From the NCBI GenBank assembly GCA_014360685.1, contig JACIXB010000009.1, positions 1,971 to 65,970 of the forward strand: 64,000 bases of DNA, read 5' to 3'. Source of the DNA: Actinomycetota bacterium. GTDB taxonomy: Bacteria > Actinomycetota > Geothermincolia > Geothermincolales > RBG-13-55-18. Below are positions 32,674 through 44,689 of the stretch, piece by piece; within the stretch, counting starts at the first letter, position 1, and each line of letters begins with the position of its first letter. The notes beneath the pieces are model-generated. The model was given only the letters and a program-made list of their open reading frames with translations, had not been told where the DNA came from and searched no databases. The position numbers were made by a program, and so were the translations under genes.

Positions 32674-35600
32674 ATGAGCATCTTTCAACTGAAGGACGCC
32701 GTGATCGAGGAATATAAGGAATACGTGCACAGTTTCCTCACCATCCAGGACGAGAGGATCCGCGATTTCGTCTCCCGGGAATTGTTGGAGAAAGGCGTCC
32801 TGTGGCCGCCGGCCCTCGTCCAGCTCAACCCCGCCTATAAAAAGGCGGCGAGCGTAGAAGATCTGGTAGCCGAGGGGAAGCTGCATCCCGAATGCGCGGA
32901 GATCTTCCGTGACCGGGACGGCAGGTCCATAACCCTTTTCCAGCACCAGCAGGAGGCCATCGAGACGGCCCTTTCGGGAAGGGGTTTCGTGGTCACTAGC
33001 GGAACGGGTTCCGGGAAGAGCCTCACCTACTTCGTGCCCATAATCGACGCCGTGCTCAAGGGCGATCCCCGTGAGCATAAGGTATGGGCCATCATCATCT
33101 ACCCCATGAACGCCCTGGTGAACTCGCAATTTTTGGCCCTGCAGGAGATGGCGGACGCATATCAAGAAAGGACCGGCCGCCAGTTCCCGGTGCGTTTCAA
33201 CCGCTATACAGGCCAGAACCTTTACGACCGTCCGGCTATCCAGAAGGAGCCACCCCACATCCTCCTCACCAACTACGTCATGCTTGAGCTGATGCTGGTC
33301 CGCCCCGAGGAACACGTCTTCGTGGATCGCACCACGGCCGGCGTAAAGTATCTGGTCATAGACGAGCTCCATACCTACCGGGGGCGCCAGGGCGCGGACG
33401 TGGCCCTCCTCATCCGCCGCCTCAAGGAGAGGTGCGGTAACCCGCATCTTTTGTGCATGGGCACCAGCGCCACCATGATCGCCGGAAAAGATTCCTCGCG
33501 CCAGGAGAGGCGCCGGGCGGTGGCCGATTTCGCCCAGAAGATGTTCGGCGCTCCCTTGCATCCCGATCAAGTAATCGAGGAGAGCCTGGAGCGCCTGACC
33601 TTCGGCGCCGGAGAAACCGATGGCCAAAGTCTCAAGGAGGCCGTGGGCTCCCCGTTGCCCGACGAGCCGGAAGCCTTCCTGCGCCATCCCCTGGTCTCCT
33701 GGTTGGAGGACAACTTCGGCCTCGAGGAGGAGGAAGAAGGGCGGTTCAGGCGCCGCCCCCCGCTCAGCCTCGAGGAGGGCGCGTCGAGGCTCTCGGAGCT
33801 GACGGGGCTGGACGAGGAGGCCTGCCGGGAGGCCTTGAGCCGGGTTTTCCTGAAGGGAGCGTCCCTGCGGAACGCGGAGGGCGAGCCCCTGCTCTCCTTC
33901 AAATTGCACCAGTTCATAGCCCAGGGGAACCGCGTTTTCGCCACCCTGGAATCTCCTTCCCAGCGCCTCCTGGACATGGAGGGACACGCTTATGCGAGCA
34001 GGGAGGGTAGAACGCTGCCCCTCTTTCCCCTCAAGTTCTGCCGGGTCTGCGGCGTGGAGTACTACGAGGTGGCGCACGACCCCCAGGACAGCCGTTTCGA
34101 GCCCTTGGGAGACGAATCCGAGCTTGTCGACGAATACGGTGAGGCCAAGGAACGGGGATACCTTCTCGTACCCCCGCAGGAACGCGACGTGGAGTGGGGA
34201 CCGGAAAATCTTCCCAGGGAGTGGCTCCAGGACAACGGAAAGGTCAAGAGGGATTACCGCGACTACGTCCCCCGGCCCGTGTGGGTCTATCCAGATGGCA
34301 AGTATTCCCAATACCTGGCCGAGGACGCCGTCAAGGCCTGGTTCCAGCCCTTCCCCTTCCGCCTCTGCTTGAACTGCGGGGTCTTCTACACCGGCAAGGA
34401 CAGCGAGTTCAGCAAGCTCGCCGGCCTCTCCAGCGAGGGGCGGAGCAGCGCCACCACCGTCCTGACCCTCTCGGCGCTTGAGAAGGCGCCCGTGGGTGAC
34501 ATAGAGGAGGGGGCCCGCAAGGTCCTCAGCTTCACCGACAACCGGCAGGACGCCAGCCTGCAGGCCGGGCATTTCAACGATTTCGTCCGCACGGGGCTTC
34601 TCCGGGCCGCCATATACCGGGCGGTGAGCGAAGCCGGCCCCCTCCGCCACGACCAGGTGGCTTCCAGGGTGGTGGAGGCCCTGAACCTTCCCTTCCGGGA
34701 GATCTCCGCCAACAAGGATCTCCAACCCCATACCCCCCTGGGAGGCGAGGTGTTGAAGGTCTTTACCGACCTCGTCGAGTACCGCGTCTACGAGGACTTG
34801 CGCCGGGGGTGGCGGTTCTTGCAGCCCAACCTGGAACAGTGCGGCCTTCTACGATTCGACTACCTGGGGCTCGAGGAGCTGTGCGCCGACGGGGAGGCCT
34901 GGCGGGAGCTCGAGCCCTTCGCGGGCCTCGACGCCGCCGGGCGACGGGAGATCCTCACCGCCCTGCTGGACCACTTCCGCAGGCAGCTGGCCGTCCATGC
35001 CTACTGGCTGCAGGAGACCAACCAGCAGCAGTTGAGGAAGCGCGTGGAGGAATGCATTGACGAGAGGTGGGGTTTCGGCGATGAGGGGCGCCTTTTCACC
35101 GCCTCGCGTTTCGTCCTTCCCGGCCAGGAGGAAAAGATCACCAACAGCTACAGCCTGGCCGAGAGGAGCCTGGTGTACCGCTACCTGAAGCGGGTTCTAC
35201 CTTCCTTCTTGCCGGAATACTCCGAGAACATGCACGGGCTCATGGATATTCTCTGCGCCCATGGCCTCCTGCGCCGCGGCAGCGAAAGGGGGATTTCCTA
35301 CGTGCAGGTGGAGTCGTCGTGCCTTATCTGGAAGCCGGGTGAAGGGACTCCGGCCGGGGAGCCCCTTTACCGGAGGCGCTCCGACGACCCCGTTTACCAA
35401 AAGGTGGAAAAGGAGGCCAACCGCTATTTCGTCAACTTCTACACCCGGCCGCCCGGCCTGCTGCTCCTGGCCGAGGGGCGGGAGCACACCGCCCAGGTCG
35501 ATTACGAGCGGAGGCAGGAGAGGGAGCGCCGTTTCCGGGACGGCGAGCTCAAGTGCCTCTTCTGCTCGCCCACCATGGAACTGGGTATCGACATCGCCGA

Positions 35601-43500: not shown

Positions 43501-44689
43501 GCCGGTACTGGTGAACGAGGCCACGGGCGAAAACCCCTGGGGTGTCACTTTTAAACAAGGTTTATTCAACATGTCAGACGACTCCCACCTCTTCCACACC
43601 CGAAGCGAGCTCGAGGAAGCCGGCTTCCGCCTCCACGGCAACCGCTTCGTCAAGGGCGAAGGCGCCAAGCGCGAAGTCTGGCTCCCCCTATACGAAGCGA
43701 AGATGATTCACCAGTTCGACCACCGCTTCGGCACCTACGAAGGCATGAACCGACGCACCAACACGCAGATTGCCACCCCAACCCCTGAGCAGCATGCCGA
43801 CCCTTGTTACTTGGTTGAGCCATGGTACTGGGTGGAACAAGAGGAAGTAAATACAAGATTAGGCGAATATGGAAGAAAATGGCTTTTAGGCTTTCGCGAC
43901 ATCGCAAGGGCAACCGATGAGCGCACCGCCATCTTCACCGTTATCCCAAAAACCGGAGTTGGAGACACTCTACCGTTACTGATTGTTAAAAACCTAAAAA
44001 CGCTTTTTGTTTCCTCTATTCTCTCTAACTTCAATGCTGTAATCCTAGATTTCATAGCTAAACAGAAAATTGCTGGAACACACCTGAATTTTTTCTATGT
44101 CGAGCAATTCCCAATCTTGGGCGCTTCAAATCTTGATGTTAGCTATTTGAATTTGATAATTCCCAGATTTTTAGAACAAATCTACACCTCCTGGGACATC
44201 AAGCCTTTCGCCGATGACGTGTGGCGTGAGGCCGATGAGGATCTCCGGAAGGCCATCCGAACCCAATGGGAGGAGAACAAACGGGCCACGGGAGGCCATA
44301 CCTGGGATCCTCCCGAGTGGACGGAGATCGCCGAGGACGGCATCCACCTCCCTCCCTTCAAGTGGGACGAGGAGCGTCGTGCCCGCCTGCGCGCCCAGCT
44401 GGACGCCATCTACGCCAGGCTATACGGCCTCAACCGCAAGCAGCTCCGCTACATCCTCGACCCCGCTGACCTCACCGAGAAGGAGCTGGAGGACATCCTC
44501 GACGACTATGAGGAGGTGGAGGACCCTCTGGACGAGGAAGCCTACCGCCGCCGCTGCGAGGCCTCCACCTTCCCCGGCGAGACCTTCCGCGTCCTCAAGG
44601 AAAAGGAGATCAGGAAATACGGCTTCTACCGCACCCGCCGTCTGGTCCTCGAGGCATGGGAGAGGTTGAACGAGAGGGATCGGAAATGA
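40586..44689 (+). CDS. Type IIG/Eco57I-like N6-adenine DNA methyltransferase (DrmMI/BrxX-like)
   Basis: VTNG..LRL N-domain; LG.VYE.LL, RK.TGSYYTP, DPACGSGHF (motif I), YGVD and GFDVVLCNPPW (motif IV); C-terminal TRD region; ATGA overlap. Confidence 0.9.
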   Translation: MSRFESLRVEGGLLSPDLIDRIADGEAPGQKPADFGLPPKAAFIDEISEAWGAARRFWEAFRARLERLSPDDPATGPTRDQWVIPLMSLLGYDLTYRPKAQLVDGLTFAVSHGAGPNADAPPVHVVGWRQDLGKLPPSGRPRLAPHVLVQEYLNRTEHLWGVVTNGRILRLLRDSQLLSRQAYIEFDLEGMFEGERLSDFALLWRLAHRTRLPRGMDDAPSCLLESYYVESVEQGGRVRERLRDGVEKALVIIGNGFLSHPANDGLRERVATGETRPESFYRDLLHLIYRLLFLMVAEERKLISPSPVYLEHYSLERLRRLADMRLRGEEHRDLWISLQATFDLFRRQELGALLQVPPLNGELFEETELDRCALYNRDLLAALRELSTYAEDARSPRRRVNYSALNVEELGSVYESLLDYHPAFLEREGRADFRLVPGTERKATGSYYTPPELVNELVKSALEPVLAGRLAGTRGREEREKAILDIKVCDPACGSGHFLLAAARRLGKELARVRTGDEEPAPEEVRSAVREVIGHCIYGVDKNPLAVDLCKVALWIEGHAEGRPLTFLDHRIRCGDSLVGVFDLKVLEEGIPDGAFEPVADDDKALARSIKRDNKAERTERADWLSFAVEAESDVRELSEASRRLSDIPDDTPDQVRNKQEAYERLRGEGGRWWNDNTACHLWTSAFFARLDKDSYREKAVPTTEVLRNYLDNPASVDPRYPSHAWEAALRHRFFHWPLEFPEVFEKGGFDVVLCNPPWELIQLQEKEFFAHRDPHIASAPNSNARKKMIKELQIRKPALWREYLDSLHLADATRKFLRKSGRFRLTSSGRINHYSVFSELFSGLINPDGRAGVVVPTGIATDDTNKEFFSHLVNKGYLASLYDFENRDKIFPAIHSRQKFSLLTLKGDGAEAGKPARFAFFLTRASQLRDERRVLELTAEDFALLNPNTRTCPVFRTRQDAELTRYIYQRVPVLVNEATGENPWGVTFKQGLFNMSDDSHLFHTRSELEEAGFRLHGNRFVKGEGAKREVWLPLYEAKMIHQFDHRFGTYEGMNRRTNTQIATPTPEQHADPCYLVEPWYWVEQEEVNTRLGEYGRKWLLGFRDIARATDERTAIFTVIPKTGVGDTLPLLIVKNLKTLFVSSILSNFNAVILDFIAKQKIAGTHLNFFYVEQFPILGASNLDVSYLNLIIPRFLEQIYTSWDIKPFADDVWREADEDLRKAIRTQWEENKRATGGHTWDPPEWTEIAEDGIHLPPFKWDEERRARLRAQLDAIYARLYGLNRKQLRYILDPADLTEKELEDILDDYEEVEDPLDEEAYRRRCEASTFPGETFRVLKEKEIRKYGFYRTRRLVLEAWERLNERDRK

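Follow-up and report, generated by a model that had tools for sequence, protein, structure and literature searches.

Organisation of the three-gene operon

We analysed a stretch of 64,000 nucleotides from contig JACIXB010000009.1 of the Actinomycetota assembly GCA_014360685.1, called the window throughout, and concentrated on three large genes, all on the + strand and all with an ATG start. The armC-like gene (32674..37752) encodes a YprA-family helicase-nuclease of 1692 amino acids, the armA-like gene (37749..40589) a RapA/BrxHII-like SNF2 helicase of 946 amino acids, and the armB-like gene (40586..44689) a predicted PglX/type IIG-like N6-adenine methyltransferase of 1367 amino acids; we refer to the products of these open reading frames (ORFs) as ORF1, ORF2 and ORF3. 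The original prediction for this DNA, made from the letters alone, had described three large genes joined by ATGA overlaps with all catalytic motifs intact. The ORF list places them at the same coordinates, and we located the helicase, SNF2 and methylase motifs in the sequence. Both gene junctions are ATGA, a four-base overlap of stop and start, a GGAGG-like ribosome-binding site lies 5' of each of the three starts, and the genes are translationally coupled. We are confident that they constitute an anti-phage defence operon of ARMADA type I in the sense of Bell et al. (2025; 10.1101/2025.09.15.676423, PMC12458937). In the passages of that paper that describe type I, a YprA homologue is followed by a BrxHII-like and then a PglX-like gene, some lineages have the gene order reversed, and the helicase carries at its C-terminus a fused Vsr nuclease predicted to be active.

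ORF1 combines in one polypeptide the Pfam domains DEAD (residues 90-269), Helicase_C (939-1003) and MZB (MrfA zinc-binding, DUF1998; 1453-1541), with the motifs GTGSGKS at 110-116, DELH at 230-233, SAT at 265 and QRSGRAGR at 994. The segment from Walker A (GTGSGKS, K115) to motif II (DELH, D230) is encoded at 33001..33372 on the + strand, and K115 and D230 align with K110 and D234 of E. coli ArmC, mutation of either of which abolished ARMADA II defence (Bell et al., 2025). The layout of the protein is RecA1, an insert of ~670 residues, RecA2, OB-CON-DUF1998 and a Vsr-type nuclease. The insert, between DEAD and Helicase_C, gave no Pfam match and contains the conserved CxxC pairs C456/C459 and C565/C568; BrxA-like, zinc beta-barrel and MarR-like domains are reported between RecA1 and RecA2 of type I helicases (Bell et al., 2025). 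The OB region holds a single zinc-ribbon-like insert (C1280/C1283/C1295/C1298). The closest solved relative of ORF1 is DruE, with MrfA (6znp) as the third best solved match. In the PADLOC search, in which nine ORFs were scanned and the best 25 matches per protein were considered, DruE1 and DruE3 were the best models for ORF1, with DruE at 1.8e-92 as a partial match and DrmA weak at 1e-12.

The original prediction had ORF1 end in a Vsr/DUF559-like nuclease, an assignment that is sub-threshold by sequence (DUF559, 17.1 bits with a cut-off of 20.6; MTES_1575, 19.3 bits with a cut-off of 38.2) and is supported by the predicted fold. From a 48-row alignment, AlphaFold produced a model of residues 1545-1692 with a predicted local distance difference test score (pLDDT) of 87.2, and the nuclease domain (residues ~1590-1692, encoded at 37441..37749, + strand) was delimited from this model and its structural matches. 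VIA-align comparisons of the model with 48,161 chains gave moderate Z values for I-Bth0305I (3r3p_B; Z 8.1, root-mean-square deviation (rmsd) 3.2, 91 residues aligned), Vsr (1cw0_A; Z 7.3, rmsd 3.0, 93 aligned) and NGO0050 (3hrl_A; Z 6.7, rmsd 3.3, 86 aligned), and 3hrl is also the chain reported for type I ArmC in Table S2 of Bell et al. (2025). Vsr and I-Bth0305I were among the five top Foldseek matches as well, all of them above E 0.001. In the 48-row alignment, P1627-D1628-F1629, C1639, G1641 and H1644-D1645 are invariant, and D1640 is kept in at least 90% of the rows. The modelled tail of ORF1 is thus probably a Vsr-type nuclease, and is predicted to be active.

ORF2 carries the Pfam domains SNF2-rel_dom and Helicase_C and the motifs GVGKT (130), DEAH (233), TATP (270) and QREGR (577). 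Among solved proteins, RapA chains come closest (E 3e-20), and K133 and D233 align with K136 and D236 of ArmA. PADLOC matched the protein over its full length with the DpdE-labelled profile PDLC02853 (5.8e-204), followed by DrmD (1.2e-87) and BrxHII (2e-54); PDLC02853 is one of several DpdE-labelled profiles, and we read it as a mislabelled relative. A complex prediction for ArmA residues 600-946 with ArmB residues 1-430 gave a score of 0.01, with a mark of 0.32, and is evidence neither way.

ORF3 matches Eco57I, N6_Mtase and MmeI_Mtase in Pfam and has the motifs DPACGSG (490) and NPPW (756), in which G494 and N756 align with G605 and N971 of ArmB. In PADLOC, its matches include DrmMI (8.7e-85) and REase_MTase_IIG (1.1e-52), while it scores well under the cut-offs of the NCBIfam PglX models. 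On its sequence, the protein is a predicted gamma-class N6-adenine methyltransferase of the PglX/type IIG-like kind. A phmmer search with the methylase against the Protein Data Bank (PDB) gave no match, and a profile search gave marginal matches to MmeI and HsdM within the methyltransferase core.

A model of ORF3 residues 1-430 (pLDDT 89.1) consists of two parts, an endonuclease-like fold and then a helical domain, as would be expected of the type IIG-like methylase that the original prediction had proposed. The first part, the restriction-endonuclease-like fold at residues ~45-230 (40718..41275, + strand; model and VIA-align), aligned with the HsdR fragment 3h1t_A (Z 8.5, rmsd 4.8, 123 aligned), over residues 49-228 with BpuSI (3s1s_A; Z 7.5, rmsd 4.2, 144 aligned), and with 3ijm_B (Z 6.2, rmsd 3.9, 123 aligned). 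The second, at ~235-425, is an HsdM-N/PglX-like helical domain (2ar0_A, Z 10.0, rmsd 3.9, 137 aligned) that also aligned with PglX (8c45_A; Z 7.6, rmsd 3.9, 154 aligned), from PglX residue 2. Foldseek found no PDB match at E <= 0.001 for this N-terminal model. The family invariants of the endonuclease-like part are S111, H112, H124, H146, Q150, E151 and N154, and they include no conserved D...(D/E)xK.

These features bear on the possibility that ORF2 and ORF3 on their own make up a restriction-modification system of the Type ISP/IIG-like kind, in which the methylase N-terminus would cut, and that ORF1 is an independent helicase-nuclease travelling with it. The order endonuclease-like fold, helical domain, methyltransferase and C-terminal region is that of BpuSI, MmeI and DrdV, the REase_MTase_IIG match points the same way, and Type ISP enzymes are described as combining a nuclease, an SF2 ATPase, a coupler, a methyltransferase and a recognition domain. 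The invariant residues of the endonuclease-like domain, however, are Ser, His, Gln, Glu and Asn rather than a D...(D/E)xK motif, the three genes are ATGA-coupled and kept together across phyla, and every gene of ARMADA II was required for defence in the experiments described by Bell et al. (2025). We regard a separate restriction-modification system as very improbable.

The methylase has a hypervariable patch at residues 1051-1200 (43736..44185, + strand), delimited by GC content and by identity to homologues. GC content is 0.40 in codons 1101-1200, and 0.42 at third codon positions, compared with ~0.7 and ~0.9 in the N-terminal ~600 codons. The closest methylase homologue, P0132, is 86% identical overall and 32% identical in residues 1151-1200. 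We found no donor of the low-GC patch, the best other protein in the collection being 61% identical over it. A role of the patch in target specificity is a guess. Neither the endonuclease-like N-terminus nor the low-GC hypervariable patch appears in the passages of Bell et al. (2025) considered here.

We considered whether the contig breaks inside the methylase genes of two related loci, L001 and L003, reflect the same hypervariability. This was not supported: in assembled runs the breaks in the methylase gene lie elsewhere, at places where high-depth contigs of foreign origin accumulate, and such breaks are probably tangles of the assembly at conserved motifs. As a separate observation, a full DUF559/Vsr-like endonuclease domain is present in many methylase homologues, most of them from hot-spring cyanobacteria. 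Its position differs, at residues 1061-1165, 495-602 and 1393-1500 (proteins P0197, P0192 and P0255), which looks like insertion of a mobile domain.

Relationship to ARMADA type I and alternative assignments

ORF1 has more than 7,900 relatives, mostly of ~1690 amino acids, in a collection of 5.8 billion proteins. Three of them, P0080 (MQL50848.1), P0110 (MBX5493896.1) and P0116 (MEJ5349439.1), are 50-55% identical to ORF1 at 99-100% coverage and carry the label 'ARMADA Type I helicase' in Table S1 of Bell et al. (2025). A look-up of the accessions of nine ORF1 relatives thus placed at least three in that table, all three labelled type I. Accessions not among the Table S1 matches listed were WP_287153321.1, WP_152944873.1, WP_207707563.1 and MBT9258206.1, and also MCD6508110.1, MGQ9474677.1 and MGB9863608.1. 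As type II and Druantia references, we used the druHE-armABCD island of E. coli O157:H7 Sakai. ORF1, ORF2 and ORF3 are 25-30% identical to E. coli O157:H7 ArmC, ArmA and ArmB, respectively, and all six residues that were mutated in ARMADA II are conserved in the three proteins.

The original prediction had called for a phylogeny of the helicase, and the tree sets ORF1 with the catalogued type I proteins. It was obtained by an IQ-TREE quick search under LG+G4 from 30 rows, comprising the window protein, 14 database relatives, 11 full-length locus translations and four references, without the partial loci L007, L008, L012, L014, L015, L017 and L021 and the near-duplicates L001-L003. ORF1 falls into a clade of 26 rows together with the three catalogued type I helicases (Shimodaira-Hasegawa-like approximate likelihood ratio test (SH-aLRT), 100). 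The genome's own DruE-like protein and its own YprA, of a 771-amino-acid frame, lie outside this clade, as do DruE of E. coli and the type II ArmC of E. coli O157; these four rows are long-branched, so that their mutual order is unsafe and their exclusion from the clade is what counts.

Gene order was compared in 21 related loci taken from one-genome-per-species contigs. The order YprA, SNF2, methyltransferase is found in seven of them (L001-L006 and L009), which come from Actinomycetota, Bacillota, Myxococcota, Armatimonadota and one Methanoregula archaeon. A complete operon in reversed order is present in L013, the C-terminus of a methylase lies upstream of the helicase in L012, L016, L018 and L019, and L021 is fragmentary. 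No partner was found in the other eight loci, each of which either is short or extends no more than 4 kb on the upstream side, where the partners sit in the reversed-order clade to which these loci belong. The archaeal locus, L004 (10001-21908, from a Methanoregula metagenome-assembled genome (MAG)), is a complete copy of the operon with 50-57% identity, nested among bacterial ones in the helicase tree, which is consistent with transfer between domains.

Among 61 related genomes, its own included, the ORF1-type helicase occurs in 12, and among the three other genomes of the genus in one. A same-genus genome that lacks the helicase matches the window collinearly between 17183 and 32258 and diverges from there on. 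Given this patchy presence and the end of collinearity at 32258, the operon is accessory DNA at a synteny break. Only the left boundary of the insertion, at ~32258, is defined; on the right, no stretch orthologous to the flank at 52.9-58.9 kb was found in any of the three other genomes of the genus.

The distribution bears directly on the idea that the genes form a housekeeping DNA-repair module of the MrfA/YprA type and serve no defence function. YprA/MrfA proper is a repair helicase (Bell et al., 2025), and MrfA is among the best solved matches to ORF1. Yet the genome encodes a separate YprA, in the 771-amino-acid frame, on another contig, the operon is confined to 12 of the 61 related genomes and lies at a synteny break among other defence-type genes, and in the published tree the family lies on the 'defence' branch (Bell et al., 2025). 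We assign a repair module a negligible probability.

For the assignment to a Druantia- or Dpd-type system, the profile matches are the main argument, since the best PADLOC models for ORF1 are DruE1 and DruE3 and PDLC02853 covers all of ORF2. The helicase tree nevertheless sets ORF1 apart from the DruE-like protein of the same genome as well as from DruE of E. coli, the partners at the locus are an SNF2 helicase and a methylase with no DruH or DruA-D-like partner, and relatives of ORF1 are catalogued as ARMADA type I. The NCBIfam models for DpdE (197.5 bits, cut-off 500) and DpdJ (71.4 bits, cut-off 800) stay far below their cut-offs, and none of the 29 window ORFs scanned has a 7-deazaguanine-pathway domain. 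A Druantia or Dpd system at this locus is, in our view, scarcely credible.

A class 1 DISARM that had diverged through fusion of drmA with drmB and replacement of DrmC by a fused Vsr domain would account for the DrmD match of ORF2, the DrmMI match of ORF3 and the weak DrmA match of ORF1 in PADLOC, and for DISARM_DrmD (NF038317) being the best NCBIfam model for ORF2; ARMADA is moreover DISARM-related by definition (Bell et al., 2025). The DrmD score is 321.7 bits, however, with a cut-off of 610, and ORF1 is matched much better by DruE than by DrmA. In the published tree, the ARMADA helicases stand beside those of Druantia and not those of DISARM (Bell et al., 2025), and ORF1 is 50-55% identical to catalogued type I helicases. 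No PLD gene was found: PLDc_2 is absent from this contig, with one sub-threshold match on another contig of the assembly, and neither a PLD nor a PglZ domain was present in the 29 neighbouring ORFs scanned. We consider a divergent DISARM highly improbable.

With the DUF1998 module fused to the helicase, no PLD gene and no PglZ found, the original prediction of a locus that is neither canonical DISARM nor BREX agrees with our data. Its statement that PLD, PglZ and BrxC genes are missing was borne out for PLD and PglZ within the searches made, PF08665 (PglZ) giving no match in the assembly, which is 2.6 Mb in size and 80% complete. For BrxC it stands on the PADLOC search, in which no BrxC model was among the matches listed for the nine ORFs, and no BrxC family search was made. 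The PADLOC matches are scattered over DruE, DpdE, DrmD and DrmMI with no modelled system that fits, and judged by its profile matches, the locus is not a member of any system modelled in PADLOC-DB or NCBIfam.

Several points weigh against the assignment to ARMADA type I. No ARMADA-named model is among the PADLOC-DB 2023 matches listed, and no NCBIfam model reaches its cut-off for any of the three proteins. Six of the nine relative accessions were not among the Table S1 matches listed, several of these accessions being recent. By sequence, the Vsr domain lies below the Pfam thresholds, Foldseek gave no PDB match to the tail model at E <= 0.001 (the best being 0.066), and Z values of ~7-8, such as those obtained for the tail, can by VIA-align's own warning reflect no more than a common arrangement. 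ArmA and ArmB resemble a split Type ISP enzyme only in their domain content. We found no experimental work on ARMADA type I in the literature searched, in which only type II has been tested, so that a defence role of the present operon is predicted from 25-30% identity to the type II proteins together with genomic context.

Against these stand observations that we made directly: the identity of the operon, its architecture, the intact motifs, the conserved synteny and the patchy distribution among relatives. The resemblance to ARMADA that the original prediction had suggested extends to gene content, gene order, the fused DUF1998 module, the Vsr-type tail and the phylogenetic placement, all of which match type I. 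Taken as a whole, this explanation is in our judgement highly probable. The full match to ARMADA type I as published removes the novelty that the original prediction had implied, and the locus is an ordinary intact copy of a system already described in 2025. As a discovery it matters little, ARMADA type I having been named and catalogued in that year. Its use is as a compact, intact example from an actinobacterial MAG of a thermophilic lineage, without ArmD and without inserted cargo. With its three genes and no motif disrupted, it could be used in a first functional test of ARMADA type I, and to ask whether the variable patch of the methylase sets specificity.

Neighbouring genes and other loci of the genome

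Directly upstream of the operon lies a gene for a NERD and UvrD-like helicase protein (30517-32571; PADLOC RTasNERD-Hel, 6.7e-73), and the collinearity with the operon-less genome ends at 32258 inside its 3' end. We considered this protein as an ArmD-like fourth component and rejected it. It matches ArmD over 65 residues only and carries NERD, not RelE; each of the other three genomes of the genus encodes it, including two without the helicase-nuclease, and it adjoins the operon, likewise upstream, only in the closest relative, L001. Further upstream, a 505-amino-acid ORF (28245-29762, GC 0.51) has an N-terminal Alba domain (Pfam, 2e-9), and blastn found nothing matching this slot in G001, a genome of the same genus.

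At 32634-32649, 25 nucleotides before the start of the armC-like gene, lies a perfect 7-2-7 palindrome, TTAGTCAAATGACTAA; the surrounding stretch is AT-rich and also contains TTGACA. The palindrome is unique in the window, a match was obtained in 5 of 100 shuffles, and a loosely similar stretch precedes the armC-like gene of L001. The palindrome may be an operator.

Downstream of the operon, GGACT/AIG2-like, Mrr_N-domain and GmrSD_N/HEC-05-like genes occupy 44656-47209, the first of them overlapping the end of the methylase gene by 34 nucleotides, and together they are a candidate type IV restriction-like module. Next comes an ORF of 1819 amino acids (47399-52858, GC 0.52), which has weak AAA_22 and ATPase_2 matches at ~1133-1282 and no PADLOC match. 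Its neighbours in the ESM Atlas are clusters of hypothetical proteins of ~1800 amino acids, some with nSTAND1, and we regard it as a candidate STAND-type defence nucleoside triphosphatase. The four downstream genes (GGACT/AIG2, Mrr_N, GmrSD-like and the 1819-amino-acid ATPase) were rejected as parts of the system; they have a lower GC content than the operon, and none of them was found beside the operon in the related loci that have downstream sequence.

On another contig of the same genome, locus L028 (G000:C20, 8644-16911) contains a second large YprA-family gene. Its product of 1647 amino acids is matched by PADLOC DruE1 at 1.2e-178 and ends directly after DUF1998, with no nuclease domain. 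An ORF of 1087 amino acids with no Pfam, PADLOC or DruH match precedes it, and the locus adjoins a type III-A CRISPR cluster (cas10, csm3-5, csx1). The gene pair looks like a Druantia of type III-B; if so, the genome holds ARMADA type I and Druantia on different contigs. Finally, one sequencing run labelled metatranscriptomic, and flagged 'probably DNA', has exact contigs over parts of all the genes; it was not used.

Proposed mechanism and comparison with known systems

In E. coli, ARMADA II gave non-abortive protection against 13 of 80 phages; defence required all four genes as well as the Walker and NPPW residues, and protection was abolished by deletion of the methylase gene or by mutation of its NPPW motif (Bell et al., 2025). 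The system was confirmed in strain EDL933 (mBio 2026, PMC13463889). By analogy with ARMADA II, DISARM and Druantia, we consider the following scheme for the present operon possible, if short of probable. ArmB would methylate a specific motif in host DNA and would at the same time be part of the recognition machinery. Beside it, ArmA may translocate along or remodel double-stranded DNA, and together the two carry the domains of a split Type ISP restriction enzyme. With ArmA as translocase, ArmB would recognise unmodified motifs, in a scheme resembling BREX and DISARM. ArmC would then load on single-stranded or junction DNA of the invader, unwind it and cut it through the Vsr-type domain, and the infection would be cleared with survival of the cell. 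The published descriptions that we draw on have DruE as a 3'-to-5' helicase dependent on single-stranded DNA, which clears phage without killing the cell, and DrmAB of DISARM as sensing DNA with a 5' overhang.

The original prediction had offered a simpler scheme, in which methylation marks self and the helicase-nuclease attacks unmethylated invading DNA. By the same analogies, this is plausible but probably too simple. As ARMADA II loses protection without the methylase or its NPPW motif, the methylase is needed for defence and is not a self-marker only. In BREX, likewise, the methylase is needed for defence itself. Going further, ARMADA type I might be a split, Type ISP-like, motif-specific machine that could be reprogrammed by swapping a patch of ArmB. 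ArmB would then be a type IIG-like protein and more than a PglX-like methylase: the endonuclease fold at its N-terminus, with histidines replacing the acidic and lysine residues, would still sense or cut DNA, and a recognition motif specific to the strain would be determined by the patch at 1051-1200. ArmA would act as the translocase of ArmB, detached from it, and recruitment of ArmC would have to await the finding of an unmodified motif. As a joint reading, this is unlikely.

Among the known systems, BREX has in PglX a protein resembled by the helical domain and methyltransferase of ORF3; the structural alignment with the methylase begins at PglX residue 2, and PglX hence appears to have no endonuclease-like fold. 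With the Type ISP enzymes LlaGI and LlaBIII, as described, it shares the domain set of methylase plus SNF2 ATPase, but here the ATPase is a separate protein, and the N-terminal fold of the methylase shows no obvious canonical nuclease motif. The type IIG/IIL enzymes BpuSI, MmeI and DrdV resemble ORF3 in domain order. Druantia type III provides in DruE the closest solved and PADLOC-modelled relative of ORF1, and by homology the best available model for the ArmC motor; its DruH is absent here, and ORF1 differs in having a Vsr rather than a PLD tail and in its methylase and SNF2 partners. With class 1 DISARM, the locus shares an SNF2 helicase related to DrmD, an adenine methylase related to DrmMI and a YprA-family helicase with a DUF1998 module, but DISARM splits the last into DrmA and DrmB and uses the PLD nuclease DrmC, whereas the present helicase is fused, ends in a Vsr-type domain and is nearer to Druantia. 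ARMADA type II has homologous ArmA, ArmB and ArmC proteins with conserved Walker A/B, GxG and NPPW residues. It differs in the order armA-armB-armC-armD, while the locus described here begins with the helicase, in an ArmC of 2113 amino acids with extra EEP and Vsr domains (ORF1 has 1692), and in its essential RelE-GajB-like ArmD, of which there is none at this locus. From ARMADA type I we see no material difference: the same three genes stand in the same order, helicase and DUF1998 are fused, the OB region has one zinc-ribbon-like insert, ORF1 sits among the catalogued type I helicases in the tree, and the protein ends in a C-terminal Vsr-type nuclease.

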